Counted from the stretch's first letter, positions 12,085 to 51,616 are shown. The stretch: 55,194 nucleotides of DNA from Nitrospirota bacterium (GCA_013151555.1 JAADIA010000018.1:1-55194), one strand, 5' to 3'. A program made the numbers and translations. Notes: generated by a model not told the origin, from the letters alone.

Positions 12085-12167
12085 CAGACTTTAGACTTCA
12101 GACCTTAGACTCCCAACCAAAAAAATCCTTTACTCTTGGGTCTATAATCTATTGTCTATAGTCTACT
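12085..12167. repeat. 7-nt periodic inverted-arm element (AGAC/GTCT type)
   Basis: CAGACTT TAGACTT CAGACCT TAGACTC ... GGTCTAT AATCTAT TGTCTAT AGTCTAC; 19 bp identical to 51553..51571. Confidence 0.85.
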
Positions 12168-12178
12168 TCCGGTAGTTT

Positions 12179-13324
12179 TCATCCTTTGCTCTCCAACAGT
12201 ATTCTCTCTGCTGCTGCTACCCCACGGCCAAGCTCAACCTTATACCCCAATTCGGAGAGAACCATCTCCAGAGCAGACATAGCCAGGGTAACATCGAACT
12301 GACCCGCATAACCCAAATGAGCAATGCGGAAAATTTTTCCTTTGAGATGGGCCTGTCCTCCGGCAATGGTTACCCCCTGTTTTTCACGCATATTTTTAAC
12401 CAGGACGGTCCCATCAATTCCTTCCGGCACCTTCACTGCCGTCACGGCATTAGCCGGGGCTTGAGAAGCAAACAACTCCAGTCCTAAAGCAGTCACCCCG
12501 GCGCGAGTAGCTTCAGCCAGGCAAGCGTGCCTTTCCCAAACGTTTTCCAACCCCTCTTCCTTAATCATCTTCACCGCTTCCCGCAAGGCTATCACAAGGG
12601 AAACAGCCGGAGTAAACGGGTGGTCGTTTTTCTTCAGACTTATCCTGGTTTTCTCAAAACTGAGATAATATTTAGGGAGCTTTGATTCTCCAACTAACTT
12701 CCACCCCTTCTCGCTCAAACTGACAAACGCTAAGCCGGGAGGAATCATTAATCCTTTTTGGGACCCGGCTACGGTCACATCGACTTTCCAATCATCAGGT
12801 TTGAACTCCATTGCTCCCAGGCCGCTAATAGCATCGACTACCAGGACAGCTTCATGGTCCTTCACTACCGCCCCAATTCCTTTGATGTCATTAGCTACTC
12901 CCGTAGAAGTCTCACATAAAGTAGTAAAGACGGCTTTAATGTCTCCCTTTTCTTCCAATTTTCGGGCAATGTCTGCCGGCTCCACCGGGCTTCCCCATTC
13001 CACATCCAGAGGAATTACTTCTACCCCATAAGCTTCACCTATCTCTCCAAACCGTTCTCCGAACTTGCCTCCCCTGACCACCAAAATCTTATCGCCGGGA
13101 GAAAGAAGATTGGCTATAGTTCCCTCCATAGCACCTGTCCCTGAAGAAGTAAAGGTAAGGACCTCGTTCTCCGTCTGGAAGATATACTTCAACCCCTCAT
13201 TAACTTCCGAAAATATCTCTCTATATGCTGCGGTCCGGTGATGGATAATCGGTTGACTCATCGCCATCAACACTTCAGCAGGAACAGGCGTCGGCCCCGG
13301 CGCTAACAAATATTTCTTTTTCAT
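12179..13324 (-). CDS. Class V PLP aminotransferase (alanine-glyoxylate/serine-pyruvate type; probable SerC function)
   Basis: LLAPGPT, SGTGAME, ETSTGV, VDAIS, GSQKGL (PLP Lys), FRIAHLG; adjacent to serA. Confidence 0.92.
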
Positions 13325-15708
13325 AGTTTTTCTTTTCTCCTTGAACTTTTAACTTTTAACTTTGAACTTTTAACTTTCTTTTTATTCTCAATAGCTATCT
13401 TAAGCACCTCGTCCATATTTTCCACGAAACGAAAATTCAGTTCCCGTTTAACATTCTTAGGAATCTCTTCCAAATCTTTTTTGTTCTCACCCGGCAAGAT
13501 AACGGTCTTCATTCCCACTCGATGAGCAGCTAAAACCTTATCCTTAACTCCCCCGACAGGCAAAACTTTACCTCGAAGGGTAATTTCCCCCGTCATGGCT
13601 ATATCCTTATGCACCGGCTTTCCCGTTAAAGCAGAGACTATCGCCGTAGCCATAGTAATCCCTGCTGAGGGGCCATCCTTGGGAATAGCTCCTTCCGGAA
13701 TATGAACATGAATATCAAGATTTTTATAAAAACTTTCCCCGATTTTTAAATTCTTGGCCCGGGAACGGATATAGCTGAGAGCTGCCTGAGCACTCTCTTG
13801 CATTACCTCTCCCAGTTTCCCCGTTAAAATAAGTTTTCCTTTTCCCTTCATAGTAGAGACTTCTGCCGCCATTATGTCCCCTCCCGCTTCCGTCCAGGCC
13901 AATCCCGTGGCTACCCCTACTTCGTTCTTTTCCTCGGCCTTAGTAAGATGATATTTAGGAGAGCCCAAATATTTAGATAAGTTCCGGGCAGTTATCTTAA
14001 TTTTATCCCTTTTCTTCTTTGCTTGAGCTACAACCTTGGCTACCTTGCGACAGATAGAGGCTATCTCTCTCTCCACATTTCTCACCCCCGCTTCCCGAGT
14101 ATAGCAACGGATGATTTGCCTGAGGGCAAGCGAAGAGATAGAAAGATCCTTTCCTTTCAACCCGTGAACCTTCAACTGTTTGGGAATTAAAAAAAGCTCC
14201 GCAATTTTAACTTTCTCCTCCTCCGTATAGCCGGGAAGATGAAGTATTTCCATCCGGTCCTGCAAAGGAGGGGGTATAGCCTGCTGAGTATTGGCAGTAG
14301 TGATAAAAAAGACATCGGACAAATCAAAATCAACTTCTAAATAATGGTCATTAAAAGCGTTATTCTGCTCCGGATCCAGAACCTCCAGGAGTGCCGCTGA
14401 AGGGTCTCCCCTGAAATCAACACTCATCTTATCCACTTCATCCATTAAAAATACGGGGTTCTTCGTCTTGGCCTTTTTCATGGACTGGATAATTCTTCCC
14501 GGCAAAGCCCCGATATAAGTTCTCCGATGGCCTCTTATCTCGGCTTCATCTCTTACCCCTCCCAAAGACATGCGAACAAAATTTCTTCCCAGAGCCCGGG
14601 AAACAGACTTAGCTAAAGAGGTCTTTCCTACTCCGGGAGGACCTACAAAACAAAGAATAGGACCTTTCATTTTCTTTACCAGTTTACGCACCGCTAAAAA
14701 CTCTAATATTCTTTCTTTGACCTTCTCTAATCCATAGTGGTCCTCGTTAAGAATCTTCTCGGCATTCTCAATGTTAAGGTTATCCTTGGTCTTCTTTGAC
14801 CAGGGCACAATGATTAACCAATCGATATAATTGCGGATAACCGTAGCTTCCGGAGAAGTCGGCATCATCCTGGAAAGACGATCCAATTCCGTGTTTGCTT
14901 TCTCTTCTGCCTCCTTAGGCATTTTAGCCTCAGCAATCTTCTTCCGGAGACTTTCTATCTCAACCGCATACTCGTCTTTTTTTCCCAATTCTTTTTCAAT
15001 GGCCTTAAGTTGTTCATGAAGGAAATAATCTTTTTGACTCTTTTCCACCTGTTTACGAACCTCGCCGAATATTTTCCTTTCAATCTGTAATATCTCTATT
15101 TCCATGCTTAAAATTGCCGTCAATTTCCGCAACCTCTCCTCCGGCAAGACTGTTTCCAGAACGAGTTGTTTATCCTCAATCTTCAGGGTAAGGTGAGATG
15201 CTACGGTATCCGCTAATCTTTCCGGATCATCAACGCTAGCTAAGGAATTAGCAACCTCATCCGATATCCGGGGATTCAACCTCACATAGTTATCAAATTG
15301 AGTCTTCACGGATCTCATCAAAGCTTCTATCTCAGGAGTATGTTTTATATCAACCTTTATTTCCTCAATCTCCACTTGAAAGAAAGGGGAAGAAGAGATA
15401 AACTGTTTGAGACGAGCCCGGAATATTCCTTCCACCAGCACCCGCGTAGAATTATCAGGAAGCTTAATAACCTGGAGGATTTCAGCTACCGTTCCCACTC
15501 GATGGATATCCGCTTCCGTAGGATCATTAACCTTAGCTTCCTTCTGAGCCGCAAGAAGAATCAGATGATCCTTCTCCATGGTTTTCTCTACCGCTTCCAG
15601 GGAAGATTCTCTCCCCACCAGGAGAGGAATCACCATGTGCGGGAAGACTACCACATCCCGCAATGGAAGCAAGGGCAAATTCTTGGATTTTTTTTTCGAG
15701 TTCTTCAT
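13321..15708 (-). CDS. lon: ATP-dependent protease La
   Basis: [10 protein letters not shown], Walker [25 protein letters not shown] catalytic Ser. Confidence 0.99.
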
Positions 15709-15861
15709 TTATACCTTTCCCCAACTTTCTTCTGTAAATATCCAATCTGACGTAACCGGTTTATCCTTCGCGCTGTTCCCGCCAACGCTTTGTGACGGGA
15801 AAAATTCCGGTAAACTAACCAAGTTTACCTAAACAACGGTGGGCATACACCAGGAATAAGC

Positions 15862-16482
15862 CTACTTTCTGCGTCCAATTATCTCATCGATAATACCATA
15901 TTTTTCAGCCTGCTCAGCTGACAGGAAAAAGTCTCTATCTGTATCCTTTTGAATTTTCTCCAGTACTTGTCCCGTATGCTTGGCAAAAATCTCATTCAAC
16001 TCTTTCCGCAACCTGAGAATTTCCCGCGCCTGGATATCAATATCGGTCGCCTGCCCTTCTGCGCCCCCCATCGGCTGATGGAGAAGAACTCGAGTATGAG
16101 GCAAAGCTAATCTCTTCCCCTTAGCTCCCGCAGCTAATAACAAAGCTCCTCCGCTGGCAGCCTGGCCAACACAGATAGTGGAAATATCGGGTTTAACATA
16201 TTGCATAGTGTCATAGATCGCCAGCGTGGCTGTTACCGAACCACCGGGACTATTGACATAAAGATAAATATCCTTATTGGCATCTTCTGATTCCAGATAA
16301 AGAAGCTGGGATATGAGAATATTAGCTTCTAAATCCGAGATGACTGCCGAGCCGCCCCGGACCACCGTCATCGAACCACCCAAAAAGACTATTCTCTCTT
16401 TTAAAAGACGGTCGAAAATATCGTAATGGATTCTTCCTCTCCCATCATCTACCACTACTCCCGGCAATCTGTTCCACTCCAT
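15862..16482 (-). CDS. clpP: Clp protease proteolytic subunit
   Basis: [15 protein letters not shown] (Ser), LLHQP (His), DRDFF (Asp). Start placed at MEWN (16482) behind AGGAGG. Confidence 0.97.
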
Positions 16483-16503
16483 TTTTGACCTCCTATTCAG
16501 CAT

Positions 16504-16571
16504 TAAGTTGTAAGGATTAAGAATTAAGCAAAAACTTAATCCTTAGAGCGAAGCGTCTTAATCCTTAATTC
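16504..16571. repeat. 7-nt periodic inverted-arm element (TAAG/CTTA type)
   Basis: TAAGTTG TAAGGAT TAAGAAT TAAGC ... CTTAATC CTTAGAG ... CTTAATC CTTAATT. Confidence 0.85.
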
Positions 16572-16575
16572 AGTA

Positions 16576-17880
16576 TTAGGGAACAATGATTCTCCCTCCG
16601 CCCGGTTTGCGAAACTTCTTCTCCTGGGGCATCAGCATCCTCACCTGATCCGGGGTAAGCACCAAAGGTTTCTCTTTCTCTTTCACCTCGGCCTGGTTTA
16701 TCAGAAAATCCAAAGTTTTCCTTCTTTTTATCCGATGAGCTAAATCTTCCCGATTTTCTTTGGTAAGAGAAATCTTGCTTTCTTCCGCCTCTTTCTTTAT
16801 TTCTTCCTCTGTCGCTACAATATTCTCTCTCCGGGAAATCTCCTCCAAAATCAGGGAGGACTTAACCTGTTTGATAGCCAGAGGCCGAAGTTTCTCCCGC
16901 AACTCGTTTTTCCCTTCCTCCTCATCCGAAGCCCGGGAGACGAGCATCAGATGATCAAGCTGCTCCTCGACCAAACGAGAAGGAAGTTCCATTTCATTCT
17001 CTTTTATTAGAAGATCAACTGCCTCACCCTGGAGCTTTCCTTCTTCTTCCTCCCGGGCCCGGGCTTCCAACTTATTCTTGATATCTTCCCGCAGCTCCGC
17101 CAGGCTATTGAACTCTCCCAGGTCCCGGGCAAACTCATCATCAACGATGAGAAGCCGACGTTCCTTGATTCCTTTCAGTTTAACCCGATAAAGCAGCTTC
17201 GCCGATGATTTCCCCTCCGGCAAGGGAACTTCTATTTCTTGCTCTTCATCCGCCTCCGGTAATTTACCAATCAGTTTCTCTTCAAATTCAGGAGGAAAGA
17301 CACCTGAACCCAGGCGGAAAAGATATCCTTCCGCACTTTGAAACGGCTTCTCATCAAGGAAGCTTTTAACATCGATCACTACCCAGTCATCCTTTTGCAC
17401 CGGACGACCTTCTACCGGAAGGAAGTCGGCATTCTCTTCCCGTTTCATCTCCAAAACTGCCTCTATTTCCTCGTTGCTAATTTCGATCCTTTCTCTTTCC
17501 AGAGACAACCCTTTATATTTCTTTACCTTCACGTCCGGCCAGGTCTCTATGGTAACCTGGAAAGAAAAAGGTTTTTTCTCTTCAGGGAGCTCTTCCCCAA
17601 CTTTCACATCCGGGTCACCCAAAGGAAAAATGTTTTTCTCCTTCACAGCTTCTGTATAAGCAACCGAAACGATTTTCTTCAAGGCCTCACTGGCGGCTAC
17701 TTCTCGAAAACGCTTTTTTAAAATGGGGAGAGGCACCTTTCCCTGTCGGAACCCATCCACCCGGGTTTCTCTTCCTAATTCCTTATAAGTTATTTCAAAT
17801 TGCCGGTCAACTTCTTCAGCCGAAACCTCGATCTTAAATTGCTGCTTACATTCGGGTAGTTTTTCTATTTCTATTTTCAT
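16576..17880 (-). CDS. tig: Trigger factor
   Basis: Ribosome-binding motif VDGFRQGKVP, FKBP-like middle domain, VDDEFARDLG; upstream of clpP. Confidence 0.95.
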   Translation of the reverse strand: MKIEIEKLPECKQQFKIEVSAEEVDRQFEITYKELGRETRVDGFRQGKVPLPILKKRFREVAASEALKKIVSVAYTEAVKEKNIFPLGDPDVKVGEELPEEKKPFSFQVTIETWPDVKVKKYKGLSLERERIEISNEEIEAVLEMKREENADFLPVEGRPVQKDDWVVIDVKSFLDEKPFQSAEGYLFRLGSGVFPPEFEEKLIGKLPEADEEQEIEVPLPEGKSSAKLLYRVKLKGIKERRLLIVDDEFARDLGEFNSLAELREDIKNKLEARAREEEEGKLQGEAVDLLIKENEMELPSRLVEEQLDHLMLVSRASDEEEGKNELREKLRPLAIKQVKSSLILEEISRRENIVATEEEIKKEAEESKISLTKENREDLAHRIKRRKTLDFLINQAEVKEKEKPLVLTPDQVRMLMPQEKKFRKPGGGRIIVP

Positions 17881-17893
17881 AACACCCCCATAA

Positions 17894-18038
17894 AGACAGA
17901 AGTCAGAAAACAGATATCAGAAGCCAGAAAATAAAATTAGAAATAAAGGTTCTTCTAATCCCTAATCCCTGTTTTTTTGTTTTTTGTTTTTTGTTTTTTG
18001 TCTTTTGTTCTCTGTCTTCTGTCTTCTGTTTTCTATCT
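17894..18038. repeat. 7-nt periodic inverted-arm element (CAGA/TCTG type)
   Basis: CAGAAGT CAGAAAA CAGATAT CAGAAGC CAGAAAA ... (TTTTTTG)n ... TCTGTCT TCTGTCT TCTGTTT TCTATCT. Confidence 0.88.
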
Positions 18039-18044
18039 TTGGAG

Positions 18045-18116
18045 AGCGGGTGATGGGGTTCGAACCCACGACATCTACCTTGGCAAGGTAGCGCTCTACC
18101 ACTGAGCTACACCCGC
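18045..18116 (-). tRNA. tRNA-Gly(GCC)
   Basis: GCGGGTG acceptor stem, anticodon arm CTACC-TTGCCAA-GGTAG, TTCGAAC T-loop; CCA not encoded directly after the discriminator. Confidence 0.97.
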
Positions 18117-18172
18117 AAATTATAGTTAAAAGTTTAAGGTCGAAAGGTTAAAGTTATAAAAACCTCTTCTCA

Positions 18173-18255
18173 TGGGCGGAAGAGGACTTGAACCTCCACG
18201 GATATTCTCCACGAGATCCTAAATCTCGCGCGTCTGCCAGTTCCGCCATCCGCCC
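18173..18255 (-). tRNA. tRNA-Leu(TAG)
   Basis: GGGCGGA acceptor, anticodon arm CGAGA-TTTAGGA-TCTCG, long variable arm, TTCAAGT T-loop. Confidence 0.97.
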
Positions 18256-18264
18256 TGGAATCAA

Positions 18265-18343
18265 AGACAGGGGTCAGAGACCCGGGGTCAGTTTTCATAA
18301 AATACTACTCTGACCTCTAATCCCTCATCCCTGTTCCCTGATT
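18265..18343. repeat. 7-nt periodic inverted-arm element between tRNAs
   Basis: AGACAGG GGTCAGA GACCCGG GGTCAG ... TCTGACC TCTAATC CCTCATC CCTGTTC CCTGATT. Confidence 0.75.
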
Positions 18344-18362
18344 ACTGCTCCCTCATCATCAG

Positions 18363-18435
18363 TGCCCCCACCAGGGCTCGAACCTGGGACACCCTGATTA
18401 AGAGTCAGGTGCTCTCCCAACTGAGCTATAGGGGC
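18363..18435 (-). tRNA. tRNA-Lys(CTT)
   Basis: GCCCCTA/TGGGGGC acceptor, anticodon arm CCTGA-CTCTTAA-TCAGG, TTCGAGC T-loop. Confidence 0.96.
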
Positions 18436-18586
18436 TTAAAACCAAGGTTATACTAACATAACTACTTCCTCTTTGGCAAGAAAATTCCTCACCTTCGCTC
18501 CTCATTTCTTTTTGAGGGGGATACCTCTGCCCCCCTCAACGTTCGCTCCCGCTCCCTGCTCTCCCCAACCCCTTCGGGGAAATCAG

Positions 18587-20527
18587 TTAATCAACGATTA
18601 CCCGGCAAGGAGGAAGAGAATTAAGGAAGAGTCTTCCATAAGAACGGGTGAGGAGACGACTGTCGAGAATAGCGATAATACCTTTATCTTCTTTATTGCG
18701 AATTAACCTGCCAAACCCCTGCTTTAACTTAATAATGGCTTCGGGAAGGCTATATTCCAAAAAAGGGTCTCCTCCCTTTTTCCTTATGTTCTCGATCCTG
18801 GCTTCATTGAGAGGATGGTCGGGAACATCAAAGGGAAGTTTAGTAATAATGACATTGCTCAAGGCTTCCCCTTGAACATCTACTCCGGTCCAGAAACTAT
18901 CCGTCCCAAAGAGAACAGAGTTAACATCCTCCCGGAACCTTTCCAGCATTATGTTCCTGGGAATACCCGCTCCCTGCCGGAAGGAATTGATTCCCTGCTC
19001 TTTCAGAAAAGGCTGAAGAGCTTGATGCACCTCATTCATAAGCTTGTAACTGGTGAAAAGAACAAAAGCTCTCCCCTCAGTCAGCTTGAGGTAATGTTTT
19101 ATCTTTTCAATTGCTTCCTCCCGATATTTCTCCACTTCCTGAGGCTCAGACATTTTCTTTGTGATAAAAAGGCGGACTTGTTTTTCATAATTAAAAGGCG
19201 AGCCGGCTTTCAACTCCAGAGGGTTTTCCAACCCGACCCTATCCTTAAAATACTGAAAAGAATTATTGGTAACCAGAGTAGCACTGGTCATAATAATGGT
19301 AGGTACTTGCGTAAAGAGGTTTTCTCTCAATTCCACACTGATATTTACAGGAGAAGATTTAAGAACGACCCTTTTGAAACCTTTCCCTTCCCTTTCTATC
19401 CAGTAAACATGGTCCTTCAGCGTCTGGCCAAGAAAAGCATTCAATCCATCGGCCAAGTCCAGGCATCTTCTCATCCAGGCACTGATTTCCAATTCATCTT
19501 CTTTAGTCTTTGCCCTTGACTTCAGCTCTTTTAAAGATGAATATATCTCCCTCAGCGGTCCATCCAGGCAGTTAGAAAAAAAATCGGGTTTACGAATTCT
19601 CTTTATCGGAGAATCAATATTCCTCATTGATTTCAAGATATCCTTAAAGAAAAGCGCCGCCTGGGACCGGGCCCGGTCAACATATTTTAAGGCATCCCCG
19701 GCCCTGAGATAAATCAGAAGTCCTTTTTTCCTCTCCCGGGTGGAGAGAGAATCTAAAAAATGTTTGATCCGATAATTGCTAATCTCAATCCCCAGATAAT
19801 CACCGGCCACCGACTCTATTTGATGAGCTTCATCCAGAACAACGCATTTACAAAGAGGGAGAAAGTCCGCCTGCACCTTTTTTAAAGCCAGGTTGGAGAA
19901 GAAAAGATGATGATTAACGATAAGGAGATGAGCCTCATATATTTTCTTCCTTGCTTTCTGAAAGAAACAATTATCCCGGTAGGAACACCCTTTCCCCAGA
20001 CAATTATCGTGCTCCGAGCAAACTTTATTCCAGATGCGGTTCGACGGCAACTTTTCCAGATCAGAGAGGCTGCCATCCGTAGTTTCCTGAAGCCAATCGG
20101 CGATCATCTGCAAATCCCGGGCTTCCCCCACGTTATCAAACAGACCTTCCTCCTTACTTTTCAGCTCCCTTTCCCAACGACGAAGACAGAGATAGTTGGA
20201 ACGCCCTTTAACCAAAGCAGCTTTGAAAGAAAGAGGCAATACTTGCTTAAGGAAAGGAATATCTCTTTTGAGAAGCTGCTCCTGAAGGTTTATGGTCTTG
20301 GTAGAAACAATTACCCTTTCCGAGTTAGCCACGGCATAGCCGATAGCCGGAACCAGATAGGAAAAACTCTTACCCACCCCGGTTCCCGCCTCAACTATCA
20401 GGTGCTTCTTGTTATCTATAGCTTTAACCACCGCCTCGGCCATCCGGAACTGCTGAGGACGATACTCGTAAGCAGGCAAACTTTTTGAAATGAGACCTTC
20501 CGGCCCGAATATTTCTTTAAGATTCAT
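18587..20527 (-). CDS. DinG/YoaA-family Fe-S DNA helicase
   Basis: Q motif YRPQQ, EAGTGVGKS, KGRSNYLC plus further Cys ligands, DEAH, FWTGVDV, QGFGRLIR. Confidence 0.95.
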   Translation of the reverse strand: MNLKEIFGPEGLISKSLPAYEYRPQQFRMAEAVVKAIDNKKHLIVEAGTGVGKSFSYLVPAIGYAVANSERVIVSTKTINLQEQLLKRDIPFLKQVLPLSFKAALVKGRSNYLCLRRWERELKSKEEGLFDNVGEARDLQMIADWLQETTDGSLSDLEKLPSNRIWNKVCSEHDNCLGKGCSYRDNCFFQKARKKIYEAHLLIVNHHLFFSNLALKKVQADFLPLCKCVVLDEAHQIESVAGDYLGIEISNYRIKHFLDSLSTRERKKGLLIYLRAGDALKYVDRARSQAALFFKDILKSMRNIDSPIKRIRKPDFFSNCLDGPLREIYSSLKELKSRAKTKEDELEISAWMRRCLDLADGLNAFLGQTLKDHVYWIEREGKGFKRVVLKSSPVNISVELRENLFTQVPTIIMTSATLVTNNSFQYFKDRVGLENPLELKAGSPFNYEKQVRLFITKKMSEPQEVEKYREEAIEKIKHYLKLTEGRAFVLFTSYKLMNEVHQALQPFLKEQGINSFRQGAGIPRNIMLERFREDVNSVLFGTDSFWTGVDVQGEALSNVIITKLPFDVPDHPLNEARIENIRKKGGDPFLEYSLPEAIIKLKQGFGRLIRNKEDKGIIAILDSRLLTRSYGRLFLNSLPPCRVIVD

Positions 20528-21041
20528 TATTCTCCGCCCGACTGACCACCCCGGTATCTACCGGAAAAGCGCTCTCTTACTTTCCGGAAAACCTACAGGA
20601 ATTATATCATCCTCTCCCCCAACCGTCAAAGCACAAGAAAACTCATTGCCTCGCGCCTCATTTCTTTTGAGGAGGATACCTGAATTCTTTTCATAATCCT
20701 ACCTGCTGACCGGTGGCCGTCAGACAATTTACTAACGGCAATTCAAACTCTTTAATGATTGTTGTCACTATCTCTTCTACTCTTAGAATTATATCCTGTC
20801 TATCCTATCTGAAATTATTTAAAGATTCTTTCTCTCAATACTATTTTGGGAGAAGCGCCAGAAATGTATTGACCAATATCCCCGGCTTTCATATAATTAT
20901 ACTGGTTCAGGGAAGGATATATCCCGCCAGGCGGACTACTCTGCAATCTTTAACTAATAACGCTAAACGCTTTTTTAATTATGCCGCCCTTTAGGTAGAC
21001 TTTTTCCCGGGAAGAGAATAACCCCGGTTAGGTGAATCCCT

Positions 21042-22508
21042 ATGAAACTCAGAACAAAACTCAGCCTCATAATGGTTTCTCTTTCTTCCCTTTCCATCCT
21101 TCTCCTTTTTCTCATCAATTACCGAAACGAAACTTCTCTAATTGAGAGTCTGGAAGAACATGCCAGCTCCCTAAACAAGGTATCCCAACTCAGTCTAACC
21201 CAGTTGACTAAAGAACCGGATTCCGATACTGTTCTTCTCCAACAGTTCATCACTAAGTTAAGCAGAGAGAAGGGAGTCTACGAGGTCTCAGTGGTCAATA
21301 ACAAAGAAAGAATCGTTTTAAGCTCCAATCCGGAACGAATCGGCAGGTTATTGGGAACCCAGGGAATCACCGAGCTATATTCCAAAAAAGGAAACGGAAA
21401 GTTAGCGCCGGGAAGTGAACAAATATTTATTTCTCAGATAATCGGCACTCCTAATAATTCCGATAAAAAATATAATGTAGTCGTCCCGCTAATCAGGAAC
21501 AACAAACGTATAGGTTCCATTCACATCCTCGTGTTCCGGGATGATTTCAAGAAGATGTTCGCCACCATGCGTCTTAGAAGTATTCTGACCACATTCAGCA
21601 TCTGGACCCTGGCTACGGCTCTTATAATCTTAGTATCCGGACGGTTCCTCCGCCCGTTTAAGAAACTGGCTCTGGCCACGGAGAGGATTTCTCAAGGTGA
21701 TTTCTCCCAGGATATCCCTTCCCAGGGAGAAGACGAGGTTAGCAGCTTAGCTCGTTCCTTCAACCAAATGACCAAGTCCCTTCGCCGGTACCGGAAGATA
21801 GAAGAACAAATGCACCGGGCCAATCGACTATCTGCCCTCGGGCAATTGGCTGCCGGGGCAGCCCATGAGATCCGGAACCCCCTAAACGCTATCGGGTTCG
21901 CTGCCGATAATCTCCGGGAAGATTTTGCTCCTGAAGACCATAAGATGCGGCAGGACTACTTCCAAATTATCCGGAACATCAAGGGAGAGATAGTCCACCT
22001 GGATGGGATCGTCAAAGGGCTAATAGACTTTTCTAAACCCCGGGAACTCCATCTCCGGACAGAAAAGGTAAATGCTATCCTCAAAGACACTTTAAGTTTA
22101 ATGGACAGGGAAGCCCGGGAAAAGGGAATAACTATCAAGTTACAGTTGGAAGATAACCTCCCTGATAGCAATCTGGATACCGAACAAATCCGGCAGGCTT
22201 TTATGAACATCATCATTAACGCTTTCGAGTCCATGCCTCAGGGAGGCACTTTGGTTATAGCTACGAGATTATCTCAAAAGACAGTGGAAATATCCTTCAC
22301 CGATACAGGCTGCGGAATATCTCCGGAACATAAAAGCAAGATATTCAATCCTTATTTTACCACCAAAGAAGAAGGTAGCGGCCTGGGGCTGGCTACGGTT
22401 CATCGGATAATCCGGGACCATGGAGGCAACGTAGAGGTTGACTCCCAGGAAGGCAAAGGCACCAACGTAACCATATATCTTCCCGGGGACGAAGGTTCAA
22501 ACAAATGA
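21042..22508 (+). CDS. Membrane sensor histidine kinase (TM-periplasmic-TM-HAMP-HisKA-HATPase), NtrB/ZraS type
   Basis: AAHEIRNPL H-box, DTGCGI, FTTK, GSGLGL. Confidence 0.95.
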   Translation: MKLRTKLSLIMVSLSSLSILLLFLINYRNETSLIESLEEHASSLNKVSQLSLTQLTKEPDSDTVLLQQFITKLSREKGVYEVSVVNNKERIVLSSNPERIGRLLGTQGITELYSKKGNGKLAPGSEQIFISQIIGTPNNSDKKYNVVVPLIRNNKRIGSIHILVFRDDFKKMFATMRLRSILTTFSIWTLATALIILVSGRFLRPFKKLALATERISQGDFSQDIPSQGEDEVSSLARSFNQMTKSLRRYRKIEEQMHRANRLSALGQLAAGAAHEIRNPLNAIGFAADNLREDFAPEDHKMRQDYFQIIRNIKGEIVHLDGIVKGLIDFSKPRELHLRTEKVNAILKDTLSLMDREAREKGITIKLQLEDNLPDSNLDTEQIRQAFMNIIINAFESMPQGGTLVIATRLSQKTVEISFTDTGCGISPEHKSKIFNPYFTTKEEGSGLGLATVHRIIRDHGGNVEVDSQEGKGTNVTIYLPGDEGSNK

Positions 22509-23869
22509 CAGATAAATCCAGTCGCATTCTCATAGTAGAAGATAAAGGCTTCGAGAAAGAGATGCTTTGCCGCTCCTTAGCCAGGGAGAACTATCAGATA
22601 ACCTCTGCCCGGGATGGCAAAGAAGCTTTATCCCTTTTCCGCCAGGACAACTACGATGTCGTCCTCTCCGACCTTAAAATGCCCGGGATGGACGGGATTG
22701 CTCTTCTTCAAGCCTTGATAGAAATGGACTCTGAAGTAACGATAATCCTGATGACTGCTTACGGGAGCGTGAAAAGTGCCGTTCAAGCTATGAAACTGGG
22801 AGCTTTCGATTATCTGACCAAACCCTTTGATAGTGAAGAACTCAAGGTAACGATAAAGAGAGCTCTTGACTACCGTCGGCTTCGCCAGGAGAATAAGGGC
22901 CTGCATTCGGAGCTGGAAGATAGATACAGTTTCCATAACATCGTAGGCAAGAGCCCGTTAATGCAGGAAACCTTCCGCCTCATTGACAAAGCTGCTCCTT
23001 CCAACAGCACTGTTATCATCTACGGAGAAAACGGCACCGGCAAAGAACTCGTAGCCAAGGCTATTCATTACCATTCCAAGAGGAGAAAGCAGATATTCCT
23101 GCCCCTAAGTTGTGCCGCTATACCTCATACCCTTTTAGAGAGCGAACTCTTTGGATACGAAAAAGGAGCTTTCACCGGCGCTACCGCCAGAAAAAAAGGG
23201 ATCTTTGAGGAAGCAAACGGCGGCACCTTCTTTCTGGACGAGATTACCGAGTTGGACATCAATATGCAGGCCAAACTTCTCCGGGCTATTCAGGAAAGGG
23301 AAATCCGCCATCTGGGAAGTTCCATATCCATTCCCGTGGACGTCCGGCTGGTTGTGGCCACCAATAAAAATATGGAAGAAGAACTCAAATCCGGACGCTT
23401 CCGGGAAGACCTTTATTACCGGATTAATGTTATCTCCATCTTCCTTCCTCCTTTAAGAAAGCGTAAGGAGGACATTCCCTTGCTGGCGAACCATTTCTTA
23501 ACCCGGTACCATTCAGGTAACAAGAAGGCCGTCCCTTCTATCAAACCTCAAGCCCTGGAAGCGCTGATGAACTACGACTGGCCGGGGAACGTCCGGGAAC
23601 TTCAATCCACCATCGAAAGAGCACTCATCCTCAATGGAAGTCAAACTATTCGCCGGGAGGACTTACCTCCCCAGATCAGAAATAAATCCAACCAAAATCC
23701 GGAGACCTCTTTCCCCCTACCCGATAAAGGATTTTCCCTGGAAGCTCACGAAAGAGAGCTGATCATTCAAGCCTTGAAGAAAACCAACGGTTCTCAGATC
23801 AAGGCAGCTGAATTGCTGGGCTTGAGCTACAAGACCTTGCAGTATAGAGTGCGAAAATATGGTATATAA
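22505..23869 (+). CDS. sigma54-dependent response regulator (receiver-AAA-Fis HTH)
   Basis: SDLKMPGMDG, GENGTGKE, ESELFG, intact GAFTGA, FREDLYYR, WPGNVREL, C-terminal HTH; ATGA overlap with the kinase. Confidence 0.97.
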   Translation: MTDKSSRILIVEDKGFEKEMLCRSLARENYQITSARDGKEALSLFRQDNYDVVLSDLKMPGMDGIALLQALIEMDSEVTIILMTAYGSVKSAVQAMKLGAFDYLTKPFDSEELKVTIKRALDYRRLRQENKGLHSELEDRYSFHNIVGKSPLMQETFRLIDKAAPSNSTVIIYGENGTGKELVAKAIHYHSKRRKQIFLPLSCAAIPHTLLESELFGYEKGAFTGATARKKGIFEEANGGTFFLDEITELDINMQAKLLRAIQEREIRHLGSSISIPVDVRLVVATNKNMEEELKSGRFREDLYYRINVISIFLPPLRKRKEDIPLLANHFLTRYHSGNKKAVPSIKPQALEALMNYDWPGNVRELQSTIERALILNGSQTIRREDLPPQIRNKSNQNPETSFPLPDKGFSLEAHERELIIQALKKTNGSQIKAAELLGLSYKTLQYRVRKYGI

Positions 23870-24119
23870 AGAAGATAGAGCCCGTTTTCTTACCCCTTTC
23901 AAAAACCTCATTTCGGGTTTTCTCTTCAGTTCCAGGGAATTTCTAAGCAACTATTTTCATTTAAAAGGCTTATCTGTATTTTTTGGGGGAAATCCCGGCT
24001 CCGCCCACCTCATTTGAGGTTTTTTAAGTTCTTATTCTTCCTTTTCCGTTTCTTCTTTTTATTTTATAACTCTTATTGCTTGAATATGTTATGCTAATTA
24101 TTTCCGTTTTTTTTCTCTT

Positions 24120-24135
24120 TGGCACACTTCTTGCT
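24120..24135 (+). promoter_or_regulatory. sigma54 (-24/-12) promoter of the moxR-bat operon
   Basis: TGGCAC-ACTTC-TTGCT, an exact match to TGGCAC-N5-TTGCW, 65 nt upstream of ATG 24201 and preceded by an AT-rich tract. Confidence 0.9.
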
Positions 24136-24200
24136 TATTAGTTTAATAAAGTATTTCCGGTGAATCTTTAATAAATATCTTCCAAATTAATAAGAGAGAA

Positions 24201-24746
24201 ATGAGAAAGATTCTTTTCATGTTTTTCATTTTATCCTGGTTGACGACCTCAACCTTTGCTCAAGAAGGACAACTCGATATCCGGGTTAACCTGGACCAAA
24301 CTATCATCCGGAAATCGGAACCCTTTCACCTTACGGTAATCTGTACCGGCCGTCAGGCCCTCACTGAAAACATGAAACTTATCCCGGGAAAATTTGCCGG
24401 TTTCCGTCTTATTGGAATCTCCAAATCAACGAGCCTTTACGAGGAGAACAATATACAAATGGTTTCGGCCCGGATAGAATATCAACTTGTACCAATTGCA
24501 ACCGGCCGAAGAGAAATCCAGCCCCTCGTTGTTGAATACCATGATCCTGCTTCCCGCCTCATCCAATCAGTAAGGAGCCGTCCTATCTCCATCATCATCC
24601 AGGGCAATGAGGATCGTCTCTCGGAAAAAACAGGTTACTTTTTCCGGCAACCGGTCTTGATCGGGACCGCCGGCGCCCTGATGGCCGGGGCAGGCTTCTT
24701 TCTCTTCCGGCGCCGGCGCCGGCGATATCTGAGGGAAAGAACTTGA
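24201..24746 (+). CDS. Single-domain BatD-like exported protein with C-terminal TM anchor and poly-Arg tail
   Basis: Signal peptide (…TFA-QEG), Ig-like pattern shared with the BatD N-domain (EPFHLTV…YQLVP…G…I), TM followed by RRRRRR. Confidence 0.7.
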   Translation: MRKILFMFFILSWLTTSTFAQEGQLDIRVNLDQTIIRKSEPFHLTVICTGRQALTENMKLIPGKFAGFRLIGISKSTSLYEENNIQMVSARIEYQLVPIATGRREIQPLVVEYHDPASRLIQSVRSRPISIIIQGNEDRLSEKTGYFFRQPVLIGTAGALMAGAGFFLFRRRRRRYLRERT

Positions 24747-24787
24747 TGACCCAAAGGAGTTAATTATTAAATTAAAGGAGAAAAACG

Positions 24788-25777
24788 ATGGAAGTAGATG
24801 TCAAACAGATCTCCGGCAGAGTAGAAGAAGAAAGTAAACTTATCTTTGAAGTAAAGAAGGAACAAGAGAAAGTCATTGTCGGACAGAAGTATATGATGGA
24901 AAGGCTTCTTGTAGGCTTGCTCTGTAACGGCCATGTGCTCATCGAAGGAGTACCCGGCCTGGCCAAGACCCTGGCCGTAACTACTCTCTCCCGTATCCTT
25001 CAGACAAAATTCCACAGGATACAGTTCACTCCCGACCTCCTCCCGGCGGACCTGATCGGGACCCTGATTTACAATCCCAAGACGGGAGACTTTACGGTTA
25101 AGAAAGGACCAATCTTTGCCAACATCATTCTGGCCGATGAAATCAACCGGGCCCCGGCCAAGGTCCAGAGCGCCCTTCTGGAAGCCATGCAGGAACGGCA
25201 GGTAACTATCGGTGAAGAAAGTTATCCCCTCGAAGAACCTTTCATCGTTCTGGCCACCCAAAATCCTATTGAGCAGGAAGGAACCTATCCTCTTCCGGAA
25301 GCTCAAATCGATCGTTTCATGCTCAAACTCAAAGTTACCTATCCGAAAAAAGGAGAAGAGAAAACAATCGTCCAGAGAATGGCCCATTCCCTTCCCCGCA
25401 CCGAAGTCAACCCGGTAATGGGTCCTGAAGATATTCTACGGTTACGCCGCCTGGTAGATGAGATCTATATGGATGATAAAATCCAAGATTACATCATCGA
25501 CATCGTCCAGGCCACCCGTACCCCTAAGGATTATGGATTAGAGTTGGAAGAATACATCCGTTACGGAGCCTCTCCCCGAGCTTCCATTTACCTCACGATG
25601 ACTTCCAAAGCATATGCCCTTCTCCAGGGACGCGGTTATGTGACGCCCCAGGATATCAAGACTGTGGGCCCGGATGTGCTTCGACACCGGGTTATCATCA
25701 GTTATGAAGCAGAGGCCGAGGACATGACCTCGGAAGACATCATTCAGAAAATTTTCGATAACGTGGAGGTACCTTGA
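24788..25777 (+). CDS. moxR: MoxR-family AAA+ ATPase
   Basis: EGVPGLAKT, RIQFTPDLLPAD, DEINRAPAKVQSALLEAMQE, ATQNPIEQEGTYPLPEAQIDRF, GASPRA. Confidence 0.97.
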   Translation: MEVDVKQISGRVEEESKLIFEVKKEQEKVIVGQKYMMERLLVGLLCNGHVLIEGVPGLAKTLAVTTLSRILQTKFHRIQFTPDLLPADLIGTLIYNPKTGDFTVKKGPIFANIILADEINRAPAKVQSALLEAMQERQVTIGEESYPLEEPFIVLATQNPIEQEGTYPLPEAQIDRFMLKLKVTYPKKGEEKTIVQRMAHSLPRTEVNPVMGPEDILRLRRLVDEIYMDDKIQDYIIDIVQATRTPKDYGLELEEYIRYGASPRASIYLTMTSKAYALLQGRGYVTPQDIKTVGPDVLRHRVIISYEAEAEDMTSEDIIQKIFDNVEVP

Positions 25778-26397
25778 TGAAAACAAATTCTCAACCAATG
25801 GATGCCGGAAAACGCCGGGTGCTGGAAGCCATCTATCATAAACGGGGCTTATTGCTAACACCGCTTTGGATTGTCATGCTCTTTGTCTTCTATAAAGAAT
25901 ACGAAAATCACTATCTCGTCTGGCCTCTGGGAATAAGTATAATAATAGGAGCAGGACTCCTGCGCATGTGGTCACAGGCTCATATAAGGAACCGGGAAAT
26001 ATTGAAAACCGAGAGGATTCTGACTACCAGTGGACCCTATCATTATGTCCGCAATCCCCTCTACATCAGCAACATCCTCATCCTTGCCGGGGCATCTATC
26101 CTTTCCGAGTTAATCTGGTTCCTGCCTTTTGTTCTCCTTTACTCGGGAATCATATATGCCTTAGTGGCCCGGAGAGAAGAAATAAGGCTTGAGGGAGAAT
26201 ATGGCGAAGCCTACCTCAAGTATAAAGAAGAAGTACCTCGCTGGATTCCAAGAATCTCCACCCCCCCGGCACCGGCGGCTGCTTCCAGGCCACTCTTTAC
26301 CCGCCGCGTCCTCATCGCGGAATACAGCCACTTCCTGGTAATAGTGCCCTTCCTGATAAAGGAAATGGTAGGACACTTGTTGTGGGGGTACGGTTGA
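25777..26397 (+). CDS. Isoprenylcysteine carboxyl methyltransferase (ICMT/Ste14/PEMT) family membrane protein
   Basis: Several TM segments; LTTSGPYHYVRNPLY and REEIRLEGEYGEAYLKYKEEVPRWIP signature; TGATG coupling to moxR. Confidence 0.88.
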   Translation: MKTNSQPMDAGKRRVLEAIYHKRGLLLTPLWIVMLFVFYKEYENHYLVWPLGISIIIGAGLLRMWSQAHIRNREILKTERILTTSGPYHYVRNPLYISNILILAGASILSELIWFLPFVLLYSGIIYALVARREEIRLEGEYGEAYLKYKEEVPRWIPRISTPPAPAAASRPLFTRRVLIAEYSHFLVIVPFLIKEMVGHLLWGYG

Positions 26398-26398
26398 A

Positions 26399-27274
26399 AT
26401 GATTCCCCGAGAACTGGTCAAAAAGATCCGCCGCATTCGGATTTCCACCAATCATGCCGTCAATGATGTCCTGGCCGGCGAATACCAGAGCGTCTTCAAA
26501 GGACAGGGAATGGAATTCGAGGAAGTGCGGGAGTATCTTCCCGGAGACGAAATAAGAACCATAGACTGGAATGTTACCGCCCGCTTCGGTCATCCTTATG
26601 TGAAACGGTTCGTCGAAGAGAGAGAATTGACGGTGATGCTTCTGGTAGACCTGAGCTCGTCCGGCAGATTCGGTTCAGTGGACCAGCTCAAGAACGAAGT
26701 CGCTGCCGAACTCTGCGCTCTCCTGGCCTTCTCGGCTATAAAAAACAATGATAAGGTAGGACTGATCATCTTTACCGATCGCATCGAGAAATTTCTTCCT
26801 CCCCAGAAAGGGTCAGAGTATGTGCTTCGGGTTATCCGGGAGCTTCTTTACTTTAAACCGACAGCGAGTAAAACCGATATCGGCCAGGCCTTAGCTTATC
26901 TGGGCCGGGTGACTACCAAACGCACCGTAGCTTTCCTGGTCTCCGACTTTCTCAATAGCGGATTTGAGAAACCGCTGCGGGTAGTCAGTAAGAGACATGA
27001 CCTCATTGCCGTGACCATCACCGACCCGCGTGAAATAAGTCTTCCCGATGTAGGAATCATCGAGCTGGAAGATGCCGAGACGGGTGAGACCATACTTTTC
27101 GATACCCGGGGTAAAACCCAGAGAAAAGAATACGAGAAATATTCTTTGGAGCGAGCCCGGGAACTGGAGAAACTTCTCCGCTCGGCGGATGTGGACCAGA
27201 TACATATACGCACCGACCGTTCCTATATCCGGCCCCTGGTCAGATTCTTCCGCCTGCGGGAGAGAAGAATATGA
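26399..27274 (+). CDS. DUF58 domain protein (MoxR partner)
   Basis: GQGMEFEEVREYLPGDEIRTIDWNVTAR, VDLSSSG, VSDF. Confidence 0.95.
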   Translation: MIPRELVKKIRRIRISTNHAVNDVLAGEYQSVFKGQGMEFEEVREYLPGDEIRTIDWNVTARFGHPYVKRFVEERELTVMLLVDLSSSGRFGSVDQLKNEVAAELCALLAFSAIKNNDKVGLIIFTDRIEKFLPPQKGSEYVLRVIRELLYFKPTASKTDIGQALAYLGRVTTKRTVAFLVSDFLNSGFEKPLRVVSKRHDLIAVTITDPREISLPDVGIIELEDAETGETILFDTRGKTQRKEYEKYSLERARELEKLLRSADVDQIHIRTDRSYIRPLVRFFRLRERRI

Positions 27275-27342
27275 AATGGCAGACAACTGAATCCAAATGA
27301 TAAATTGGAACAGATTATAAACTATAGACTGAAAGAGTAACC

Positions 27343-28404: not shown

Positions 28405-28410
28405 AAATAA

Positions 28411-28501
28411 GGATTCAAAGATTCGAGGACTTGAGGATTCAAGTGCTTATTTTTTCAGGACTTTCACTTGACCTCTCAGATCCTGGATTTCTTAAATCCT
28501 C
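28411..28501. repeat. 8-nt periodic inverted-arm element
   Basis: GGATTCAA AGATTCGA GGACTTGA GGATTCAA ... degenerate TTGACCTC/CTGGATTT/TTAAATCC right arm. Confidence 0.75.
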
Positions 28502-28520
28502 ATCTATGGAGAAGTAGAGG

Positions 28521-29585: not shown

Positions 29586-29586
29586 G

Positions 29587-30594: not shown

Positions 30595-30599
30595 GAACG

Positions 30600-37534: not shown

Positions 37535-37575
37535 GTAAGATTATTAAGAAAAACTTAATCCTTACAACTTACCAC
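37535..37575. repeat. 7-nt periodic element (TAAG/CTTA type), relative of 16504..16571
   Basis: CTTAATCCTTACAACTTA (37554-37571) is the exact reverse complement of 16504-16521. Confidence 0.8.
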
Positions 37576-43219: not shown

Positions 43220-43223
43220 GATA

Positions 43224-43288
43224 AGTGCTCCAGTACTTGAGTGCTCCAATTAATAACTTTAATGCTTTGACCGGAGCACTGGAGCACT
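43224..43288. repeat. 8-nt periodic inverted-arm element
   Basis: AGTGCTCC AGTACTTG AGTGCTCC ... GGAGCACT GGAGCACT (exact reverse complement of the unit). Confidence 0.85.
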
Positions 43289-45024: not shown

Positions 45025-45165
45025 CTTTACTCTCCTTTTCTTCCTACAATATCATAAAGTCTTAAGCAATGTAAAGTTTTTTGAAAACTTATTCCGGTTT
45101 TTCTTTATTAAGCCTAAAATCCCACCAATTAAACATTCTCTTATTTGCCGTTAATGACTCATTTA

Positions 45166-46608: not shown

Positions 46609-46622
46609 CAAGATGTCCCAGT

Positions 46623-46823
46623 AAATTATCGCCCTTCGGACGGACTTTTAACCACGGAAGCACAGAATCACGGAAAAATTTGACTTATTTTTCTTTCTTA
46701 ATTCTAAATTCATTATTCCGTGTTTGCCGTTATTCCGTGTTTCCGTGGTCTTTCTTAAGTCGTTAATTTTTAACCTTTTTATGCTCAACAAGTTGAAAAG
46801 GATATTCCTATACAGTCAAGCTA
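46623..46823. repeat. Dispersed intergenic element, long copy, with 9-nt periodic inverted arms
   Basis: ACCACGGAA GCACAGAA TCACGGAA ... TTCCGTGT TTCCGTGGT; flanks align with 6809..6938. Confidence 0.9.
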
Positions 46824-46831
46824 TTAACTAA

Positions 46832-48307: not shown

Positions 48308-48345
48308 ATCCTTCACCCGTTATCTATATTTCAAGAAAACTTCTT

Positions 48346-48530
48346 CACCGCAGAAACACGGAGAACACAGAGAAATACTTAAAAAATTTATAACAACAGA
48401 TTATTTTTTTAAATTTAAAGAAAAATGTAAGATATTAATTCTTCCGTGTTTCCTTAGTTCCGTGCTTCTGTGGTTGATTTAGTCTAATATTTATCTTGAT
48501 TTTAATTCTTTTCTGTGCTCTCTGTGGTGT
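48346..48530. repeat. 8/9-nt periodic inverted-arm element (CACGGA/CACAGA type)
   Basis: CACCGCAGAAACACGGAGAACACAGAGAAA ... TTCCGTGTTTCC…TTCCGTGCTTCTGTGGTT ... TCTGTGCTCTCTGTGGTG around an AT-rich core. Confidence 0.85.
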
Positions 48531-48532
48531 TT

Positions 48533-49096: not shown

Positions 49097-49101
49097 CTTC
49101 C

Positions 49102-50931: not shown

Positions 50932-51521
50932 TATTTTTTTCTCCGCGACTTCTTTCCCAGACTTCCCCCGGGATGGAAACGCGCAAAATCTTTCTTTTTA
51001 AAACCCCGTTTGTCCAGAAGAGTCATAGCCAAAGCATCCCCCATAGCTAAAGAAGCAGTAGTGCTGGCCGTAGGAGCTAACCCTAAAGGACAAGCCTCTT
51101 TTTCCACACTCACATCTAAAATAATATGGCTATCTTTAGCTAAGGTAGAGTCCGCTTTCCCGGTAAGGACAATCACCTTGGCCCCGATTTCTTTAATAAA
51201 AGGAAGAAGTTCTTTTATTTCAGCAGTCTCCCCACTATTGGAGATAGCTAAGACGACATCATCTCCGGTAACCATTCCCAGATCACCGTGCCGGCCCTCA
51301 ACAGGGTGAAGGAATAAAGACGGCGTTCCCGTACTGGCCAGAGTGGCGGCTATCTTCCTACCGATGTGACCGGATTTTCCTATTCCGGTAACCACCACCC
51401 TTCCCTTGCTTTTCAAGATCATCTCCACCGCCAGGGAAAAGCTTTCCCCAATCCTGTCTATCAGCGCCTCTATCGCTTCCGCTTCTATTCGGAGAACCTC
51501 TTTAGCTCGTTCGATGATCAC
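50931..51521 (-). CDS. kdsD: KpsF/GutQ/KdsD arabinose-5-phosphate isomerase, SIS domain only
   Basis: GIGKSGHIGRKIAATLASTGTP, HGDLG, EACPLGLAPTAST, HPGGSLG then stop; TAATG coupling to glmS. Confidence 0.88.
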   Translation of the reverse strand: MIIERAKEVLRIEAEAIEALIDRIGESFSLAVEMILKSKGRVVVTGIGKSGHIGRKIAATLASTGTPSLFLHPVEGRHGDLGMVTGDDVVLAISNSGETAEIKELLPFIKEIGAKVIVLTGKADSTLAKDSHIILDVSVEKEACPLGLAPTASTTASLAMGDALAMTLLDKRGFKKKDFARFHPGGSLGKKSRRKK

Positions 51522-51552
51522 TTAAGAAACCTCCCTAAAAAGACCCGCAATT

Positions 51553-51616
51553 CAGACTTTAGACTTCAGACAAAACCAAAAAAATCTTTTAGACTATGGT
51601 TCATAGTCTAAAGTCC
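51553..51616. repeat. 7-nt periodic inverted-arm element (AGAC/GTCT type), relative of 12085..12167
   Basis: CAGACTT TAGACTT CAGAC…AACCAAAAAAATC…TAGACTA…TAGTCTA AAGTC. Confidence 0.85.

Follow-up and report, generated by a model that had tools for sequence, protein, structure and literature searches.

The stretch of DNA considered here, which we call the window, is contig C57 (55,194 nt) of a Nitrospirota genome (G000; 1.81 Mb in 99 contigs, 45% G+C, 94% complete) whose GatB shares 77-79% identity with the nearest uncultured genomes and 62-68% with candidate division NPL-UPA2. A first-pass annotation had listed in it 14 short loci made of tandem units of a fixed period, most of them completed by a second, inverted array, in a housekeeping context (the aminotransferase-serA junction, lon, tig-clpP, a tRNA cluster, the bat operon, larC, tsaD, gatA-gatB and SIS-DHDPS). 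We scored each locus for periodicity and for folding energy (two values) in comparison with the mean of 30 shuffles, and found that 11 of the 14 are real: those at 12085, 16504, 17894, 18265, 28411, 31801, 37535, 43224, 46650, 48346 and 51553 consist of three to eight 7- or 8-nt units in tandem, followed by a spacer and an inverted arm, and their energies lie below the shuffle mean. Of the remaining three, 13341 has one arm only, 18126 gives a weak signal and 42506 does not qualify as a feature. Comparisons were made with the 12 nearest relatives of this genome (G001-G012), among which G004 belongs to the same order as G000 and to one genus with G006, and with loci of other genomes, which carry L numbers (L002, L104 and on to L250).

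Two of the elements are built of AGAC heptamers, both on the minus strand. The first (12085-12166), between the aminotransferase stop codon and a serA-like start, has a left arm of four units (12085-12112), a spacer and a right arm of four inverted units (12138-12166), folds at -20.3/-31.8 kcal/mol against -7.5 for its shuffles, and has nine other places in the genome; the second (51551-51613), between DHDPS-like and SIS genes, has a 13-nt loop word in common with the first, with three occurrences in the genome. TTAAG heptamers form a hairpin at 16503-16570 (minus strand), between the tig stop and the clpP start, which carries a mini-hairpin nested in its right arm and has 25 other genome places, and a small hairpin at 37535-37572 (minus strand; ten other places), between a larC-like stop and a DUF3006 gene, with two units, a 5-nt loop and about three inverted units (-10.2/-11.1 against -5.7). 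Around the tRNA genes, a long compound element runs from tig to tRNA-Gly (17894-18039, minus strand; periodicity 1.0, -45.2/-37.5 against -21.6), with CAGAA-type heptamers at 17894-17931, a short CTAATCC array at 17955-17970 and a right arm at 17973-18039 of T-rich and TCTGT heptamers; between tRNA-Leu and tRNA-Lys another (18263-18357, minus strand; -30.5/-36.3 against -16.7) pairs GGGTCAG-type units on the left with 5.4 copies of an ATCCCTG heptamer on the right, and has no second copy in the genome, where the window loci have 0-25 other places each. On the plus strand, a hairpin of GGATTCAA-type 8-mers (28411-28503; left arm 28411-28442, inverted arm imperfect; -32.5/-34.8 against -21.7) lies upstream of a batA-like gene, and between the stop of a TPR gene and a batD-like gene 6.6 copies of an AGACAGA heptamer (31800-31844) are followed by a short inverted arm at 31858-31880 (the whole at 31800-31880; periodicity 0.93, 24 other places).

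The remaining three are on the minus strand. At the tsaD start, a hairpin at 43224-43288 joins AGTGCTCC units (43224-47) to GGAGCACT units (43273-88) and folds at -26.0/-28.6 against -14.4; its GGAGCACT unit also flanks a four-helix-bundle gene elsewhere in the genome (G000:C89:9872-10231). At the gatA-gatB junction lies a hairpin (46651-46749) whose units are of the CACGGAA 8-mer class and whose ends read ACCAC...GTGGT; arms of this type are seen around genes for GxxExxY proteins. A compound element of the same class (48347-48530), between a GATase gene and gatA, has a left arm at 48347-48374, a right arm at 48438-48474 and an extra right-type arm at about 48510-48530, and shows the weakest fold (-39.4/-42.0 against -33.2).

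The single AACTTTT heptamer arm (13332-13377, minus strand; periodicity 0.93, energy 0) has no inverted partner. The Lon open reading frame (ORF) continues across its array (window 13321-13400), which supplies the final ~18 codons and thus repetitive residues, and the alignment to the Lon of G002 breaks off at residue 777 of 795. Another array of this sort lies inside an ORF at G000:C70:8705-8733. The AAGTT-like periodic stretch between tRNA-Gly and tRNA-Leu (18117-18172, minus strand) is doubtful, with a periodicity of 0.71 and an energy equal to that of its shuffles; it and the arm at 13341 are mutually inverted, 4.7 kb apart. On another contig (G000:C96:2315-2895), inverted AACTTT/AAAGTT heptamer arrays bracket, as judged by eye, a probable ribosomal protein S7 gene, so that the arms of one family can occupy consecutive junctions. 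The candidate at 42506 was rejected because it lies inside the TsaD coding region, has a periodicity of only 0.64, does not differ from its shuffles in folding and occurs nowhere else.

Several of these junctions are occupied by differing families in different genomes. The aminotransferase and serA genes overlap in G004 and are separated by another element family in G002; tig and clpP are 1 nt apart or overlap in G006 and G003 and enclose a different element in G004; the GATase-gatA junction has different unit families in G001 and G002 and measures 11 nt in G004; the DHDPS-SIS junction of G001 holds a GGTTCAAGG-type hairpin and units of the GGATTCAA type found at 28411; and at gatA-gatB the relatives have other units or nothing. 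Two observations on these junctions stand apart. The orthologue of window junction 12060-12178 in G003:C1 (L118) contains a 477-nt insert with two small ORFs, resembling by eye a HicB/HicA pair, and no tandem-unit arms; at a relative's gatA-gatB junction (L002 and L125), about 100 N follow directly after a periodic start and may be a gap.

The arrays and their inverted pairing lie far beyond chance. Tandem Repeats Finder (TRF), run on all 1.81 Mb and on three dinucleotide shuffles, returned 363 rows of period 7 (shuffles 45-56, mean about 49), 198 of period 8 (57-66) and 244 of period 9 (46-55). Intergenic DNA, roughly 15% of the total, contains 237 of the period-7 arrays and coding DNA 110. 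Array pairs with matching units no more than 80 nt apart were inverted in 48 cases and direct in 2, and a more sensitive scan found an inverted partner within 150 nt for 107 of 1106 arrays and a direct one for 9. The merged set comprises 79 elements with a median length of 105 nt (52 of period 7, 21 of period 8, 5 of period 9 and 1 of period 6). The first-pass annotation was correct in placing the loci at operon junctions: 67 of the 73 elements with both flanking genes called lie between co-directional genes, after the stop codon (at a median distance of 20 nt) and before the ribosome-binding site.

It had also proposed that structure rather than sequence is conserved, which does not hold within families, where the sequence is kept as well, loop included: elements with equal units also have equal loops. 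The GGCAC 8-mer family is the clearest case, with 21 full-length copies in G000 whose alignment (A2) has many invariant loop columns. It is matched in five of the 12 nearest relatives (G001, G002, G004, G006 and G008; two genomes of the same family, two of the same order and one of the same phylum), with full-length identity reaching 92% in G001 and weaker matches tallied in others, and 11 of the 12 copies between co-directional genes are oriented with the host genes. By its arms this family belongs, with 46650 and 48346, to the GxxExxY-type class, as defined by a motif chosen post hoc. Unit number differs between copies of one family, and nested elements are common, including a ~24-nt insert inside TTAAG arms.

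The same layout encloses genes. The genome has five PF05635 (four-helix-bundle) genes, with mutual protein identities of 23-35%, and several PF13366 (GxxExxY) fragments. By eye, arrays are present on both flanks of all five PF05635 genes, inverted in four and direct in the one on C62, and the GxxExxY remnants on C9, C24, C80 and C54 are flanked by arms likewise. We found the layout also in relatives, in 18 loci of Omnitrophota, Patescibacteria, Planctomycetota, Acidobacteriota, Firmicutes, Bacteroidota and an archaeon, and around 25 PF13366 genes of other genomes. We also applied a strict test: the strongest inverted 20-mer match from one flank to the other had to surpass every one of 40 shuffles, and pseudo-gene controls were taken from the same loci as the cargo genes. 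Of the four-helix-bundle loci, 17 of 28 passed (2/5 in G000, 3/5 in relatives and 12/18 in distant phyla), as did 14 of 24 GxxExxY loci and 5 of 61 controls; L242, whose flank was too short, was excluded from this test, and L104, L106 and L107, with broken or partial genes, from the relatives' four-helix-bundle set. The link to four-helix-bundle and GxxExxY genes, put forward in the first-pass annotation without a search, is thus upheld.

Unit length differs with cargo (Fisher p = 8e-6, some loci being kin). The four-helix-bundle flanks comprise 15 with period 7, one each with periods 8 and 9 and 11 below threshold, compared with none of period 7, six of period 8, two of period 9, two of period 10 and 14 below threshold for GxxExxY flanks. 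In gene-sense polarity, the CACRRAG-like core of GxxExxY arms (a post hoc motif) was counted across 25 loci: forward copies number 40 on the 5' side and 10 on the 3' side, reverse copies 9 and 34, respectively. The ACCAC...GTGGT pair, likewise post hoc, is found in G000 130 times in proper order and 20 times in improper order (23-33 in shuffles). The small gene is co-oriented with both neighbours at all six G000 loci examined for this, and among 23 distant four-helix-bundle loci 13 are co-oriented and 4 opposite.

Arms of a single family occur both with and without a gene. Equal ACAGGATTA 9-mer arms enclose N- and C-terminal GxxExxY fragments, shorter fragments and loops without a detectable gene (fragments on C24, C80, C54, C19 and C47; shorter loops on C82, C94 and C70). 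A 17-mer of the arm of the C34 four-helix-bundle gene recurs in seven gene-less places, and in G006:C18 a gene-less hairpin lies beside a gene and retains the gene's first ~20 nt in its loop. The word scar, used for these loci in the first-pass annotation, is therefore fair for the 9-mer family, whose loops keep pieces of the GxxExxY gene; its companion term, empty site, fares worse, as the junction comparison below makes plain.

A few variants of the layout may be recorded here. In an Altiarchaeales contig (L148), a four-helix-bundle gene lies between long direct GGGATTA-type heptamer arrays. A second arm style, consisting of G+C-rich mini-hairpin arrays split by CTAT-like words with a period of ~16-17 nt, was seen at G000:C62:2000-2760, L152, L104 and G000:C55:19587-19819, and on C62 these arrays stand in direct orientation on both sides of the four-helix-bundle gene. 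At L250 (G051:C28), a GxxExxY cassette with 8-mer arms is nested in an outer pair of GGTTCGAGG-type arms.

The four-helix-bundle proteins match TIGR02436 strongly and the Avd model weakly (E-values of 1e-8 to 4e-3, below the cut-off), and their solved relatives, 2gsc and 2rld, have five chains per entry. GxxExxY proteins are of ~115-130 aa, and the 19 compared have invariant G19, E22, Y25, D61, K73, Q86, Y90 and N98, with E71 in at least 90%, giving a D...ExK nuclease motif in a PD-(D/E)XK fold; the structure model has a predicted local distance difference test (pLDDT) score of 95.5, and its best PDB neighbours, with weak E-values, are Cas4, the RecB-type nuclease domains of AdnAB/AddAB, and endonucleases of mobile elements (R2 and a homing enzyme). 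The window itself holds no candidate mobilising enzyme, as had been noted from the outset.

Comparison of gene junctions indicates discrete insertion. Over 968 kb of G004, 173 co-directional gene pairs are adjacent in both G000 and G004, and their median gap is ten-fold larger in G000 (119 nt against 11 nt), with 125 of the 173 gaps at least 60 nt long in G000 and 31 in G004. A repeat or inverted-repeat signal was present in 79 of the 173 G000 gaps, compared with 6 after shuffling, and 56 of these 79 gaps are shorter than 45 nt in G004. Elements thus occupy about 46% of conserved co-directional junctions, and are therefore a major shaper of the intergenic DNA of G000. Between the congeneric G006 and G004 we found six exact-edged indels, each of them past the stop codon of the first gene and ahead of the ribosome-binding site of the next. 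Two are whole four-helix-bundle cassettes, and because the corresponding G004 sites are armless, with only the stop codon and 14-18 nt, the arms belong to the element and not to the target. The loci are thus not the empty sites first proposed. Gene-less forms are multi-copy families that persist in G001, G002 and G004, where no four-helix-bundle gene was detected, and no excision was seen. One junction holds a four-helix-bundle cassette in G008 and a gene-less GGCAC element in G000.

Taking together the paired-array architecture, its excess over chance, the multi-copy families, the discrete insertion between stop codon and ribosome-binding site, the arm families with and without a gene or its remnants, and the nuclease motif of GxxExxY proteins, we regard the window loci, with moderate confidence, as miniature elements that lack a gene and belong to a class of small insertions living between operon genes. 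A full element would consist of an array of three to eight tandem units, one small gene and the inverse array, the gene usually oriented as the host genes are. Its cargo would be either an Avd-like four-helix-bundle gene (PF05635/TIGR02436), mostly with 7-nt units, or a gene for a GxxExxY protein of PD-(D/E)XK fold (PF13366/TIGR04256), with 8-10-nt units and often a CACRRAG-like core. Loss of the gene would leave a hairpin of ~60-200 nt that persists and multiplies as a dispersed family, the hairpin standing to the gene-bearing element as a miniature inverted-repeat transposable element (MITE) stands to its parent transposon. In the operon transcript the arms could pair into a long imperfect stem that RNase III, encoded at G000:C25:5376-5765, might cut, and operon expression would then not be broken by the insertion because of such cutting. 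By analogy and from the conservation of its motif, the GxxExxY nuclease may mobilise its own class.

A number of observations weigh against this account. Neither movement, enzyme activity nor RNA ends were observed. Compensatory changes were found at none of the 14 consensus pairs in the 21 GGCAC copies; the sense strand folds better than the antisense only slightly (36 against 25 of 67, Wilcoxon p = 0.077), and the excess of G.U pairs (215 against 144) is in line with a composition in which G exceeds C. The two arms do not match perfectly, and this imperfection and their asymmetry are themselves conserved; a plain stem does not account for it. Among the six exact-edged indels, one has a target duplication (9 nt of ribosome-binding-site sequence) and five have none, and the preference for co-directional junctions is modest (67/73 against a background of 83%, p = 0.025). 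The strict arm test was failed by 11 of 28 four-helix-bundle and 10 of 24 GxxExxY loci, and arrays are direct rather than inverted on C62 and at one archaeal locus. Both the CACRRAG and the ACCAC...GTGGT motifs were chosen after the data had been inspected, and the latter stands on both sides of only 5 of 25 GxxExxY loci, on which ground we rejected it as a universal end. Finally, no intact GxxExxY gene was found in G000 (94% complete) and no PF05635 gene in G001, G002 or G004, yet hairpins are many there; mobilisation in trans would therefore have to lie in the past or come from elsewhere.

A broader proposal, which we advance only tentatively and regard as rather doubtful, is that tandem-unit inverted arms around a four-helix-bundle or GxxExxY gene define one class of mobile cassettes of bacteria and archaea, in operon junctions and in rRNA, whose repeated units are the sites that the cassette's own protein binds or cuts, with the GxxExxY nuclease acting on CACRRAG-type 8-10-mers and the pentameric Avd-like bundle on heptamers. 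If this were true, such a class would explain the excess of intergenic heptamers in bacteria, the cyanobacterial short tandemly repeated repetitive (STRR) sequences and the origin of rRNA intervening sequences (IVSs). 

Heptamer repeats, rRNA IVS proteins and GxxExxY proteins are all widespread and all lack an explanation; a published table gives the function of PF13366 as 'Unknown' (PMC3424549). The present data tie them into one element type with full and decayed forms and clean boundaries, so that two common orphan protein families receive roles that can be tested. This link also explains the presence of genes from both families within operons of unrelated function. One example is their position among cas genes, which had been taken as a sign of functional partnership (PMC3936711), and annotators may wish to consider that such gene neighbourhoods can be accidental. 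A literature search, which took in neither supplements nor the STRR and heptanucleotide papers, turned up no publication connecting PF05635 or PF13366 genes with tandem-unit arms on their flanks, and none that brings together the separate reports on Xanthomonas heptamers, PF05635 ORFs in rRNA, PF05635 genes among cas genes and the Avd likeness.

Alternatively, one could envision repeats that are home-grown, with 7-9-nt units multiplied in place by replication slippage, a bias well known from intergenic DNA of bacteria, inverted pairs kept as useful hairpins between cistrons (for instance in mRNA stabilisation or processing) and small genes merely lodging there. Such a process would fit the variation of unit number within a family, the different units at orthologous junctions of near relatives, and the GATase-gatA element of G001 and G002, in which the outer few bases are alike and the inner units differ; single arms exist (13341), and arrays have been absorbed into coding sequence (the Lon tail and G000:C70). 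In Xanthomonas, too, a heptamer excess, inverted pairs and length variation between species have been described and slippage proposed, as far as the accessible part of that study goes (PMC4692102). However, families keep the same non-repetitive loops over 21 unrelated junctions and between genera, at up to 92% identity, and slippage in place cannot be the source of this; the same-genus indels are presences or absences of whole elements rather than gradual growth, and gene remnants lie inside loops. We think it unlikely that the loci arose in this way: slippage in place probably shapes unit number and cannot explain the dispersed families.

It is still less likely that the hairpins are moved as single-stranded DNA by IS200-type Y1 transposases, in the manner of repetitive extragenic palindromic (REP) sequences, their paired hairpin forms (REPINs) and their REP-associated tyrosine transposases (RAYTs), with the small genes as passengers. 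Y1 (PF01797) genes are present in 9 of the 13 genomes searched (among them 2 in G000, 1 each in G001 and G002, 6 in G004 and 7 in G006); G004 combines many hairpins and six Y1 genes with no four-helix-bundle gene; and hairpin ends, the lack of target duplication and fixed orientation are typical of the Y1 family, as is established and as stated in the portion of PMC3116915 accessible to us. We read both flanks of six Y1 genes, one in G000 and five in G004 (the second G000 gene runs off the contig end, and one G004 gene spanned two tiles). Against such a mechanism, none of the six has tandem-unit arms, and four are bounded by non-tandem inverted repeats of their own (the other two, G004:C1:8999 and G004:C18, show by eye no clear bounding repeat); hairpin matches also occur in G003 and G005, which have no Y1 match. 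The G000 gene, coding for a Y1 (IS200-like) transposase of ~224 aa at G000:C1:6236-6910, lies within its own 16-nt inverted repeat, a 12-mer of which has 16 genome occurrences and forms a small family of its own, and private repeats of this kind accompany three of the five readable G004 genes. The G000:C1 gene and its repeat are a separate REP/RAYT-like system.

It is very improbable that the loci are regulatory hairpins (intrinsic terminators or attenuators), chance or assembly artefacts: although they lie just past stop codons (median 20 nt), terminator-like sites in 11000-30999 number 29 against 27.3 expected, with one overlapping a listed locus, no T-runs follow the arms, no Rfam family was matched (only three tRNAs in the window and nothing in six cargo loci), the repeat statistics are far from shuffles and the families recur in independent assemblies.

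Returning to the reading of the loci as miniature insertion elements, comparison with known systems brings out what is familiar in them and what is not. The four-helix-bundle proteins resemble the Avd protein of diversity-generating retroelements (DGRs) in their weak match to its model, and PF05635 is said to resemble Avd in the part of PMC10053308 available. Unlike Avd systems, these elements have no template/variable repeat pair, TIGR02436 scores far better than the Avd model, and no reverse transcriptase was found in G000 or G001-G008 (1 of 13 genomes searched overall has one); a DGR-like or retro-mobility reading is thus unsupported in this lineage.

The elements are also like the IVSs of 23S and 16S rRNA, in which a four-helix-bundle gene or nothing lies between complementary arms in transcribed host RNA. 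Gene-bearing relatives of the window loci have complementary arms around a PF05635 ORF (17 of 28 in the strict test), and the window loci themselves have no ORF; for rRNA IVSs, ORF-containing (PF05635) and ORF-less versions at the same sites are reported in the accessible text of PMC11270868. Unlike those IVSs, the elements here lie in operon messenger (the window loci are between protein or tRNA genes, and no rRNA match was found in the window or six cargo loci), their arms are arrays of tandem 7-10-nt units, and the forms that lack a gene make up multi-copy families. In rRNA IVSs, RNase III is established as the enzyme of excision, and it also cuts Correia elements. The name of the IVS protein family reportedly goes back to Ralph and McClelland in 1993. 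PF05635 genes have also been found lodged between cas genes (PMC3936711).

MITEs and REPINs offer a second parallel. Like them, the elements are short, non-coding, hairpin-forming and intergenic, with terminal inverted repeats and many dispersed copies of conserved interior; REPINs, to judge from the available text of PMC3116915, derive from or depend on a coding partner. Here the same arms enclose GxxExxY remnants and four-helix-bundle genes, and the GxxExxY protein, which bears a nuclease motif, might act as a transposase. Unlike those of MITEs and REPINs, the terminal repeats are tandem arrays, there is no consistent target duplication, and the candidate partners are an Avd-like protein and a PD-(D/E)XK protein rather than any known transposase.

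A third parallel is with the heptameric simple sequence repeats of other bacteria. STRR sequences are heptameric intergenic repeats of cyanobacteria, and in Nostoc tandem heptamer arrays Elhai and colleagues reportedly described, in 2008, very small mobile inserts, comparable to the ~24-nt insert in TTAAG arms here. Tandem heptamers, mainly intergenic, are common to this genome, to the Xanthomonas GGGAATC and Nostoc GGGGAYT repeats and to STRR sequences, although that description covers only one arm and neither the paired element nor its families. The Xanthomonas and Nostoc heptamers are 89-93% intergenic, mostly between co-directional ORFs and near the upstream one, with 70-75 inverted heptamer pairs per Xanthomonas genome, and the accessible part of that account treats them as G-quadruplex formers and slippage products, connecting them neither with four-helix-bundle or GxxExxY genes nor with dispersed families whose loops are conserved (PMC4692102). 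One of the solved four-helix-bundle proteins, XCC0516, is from Xanthomonas, which suggests that the heptamers of that genus are the phenomenon seen here.

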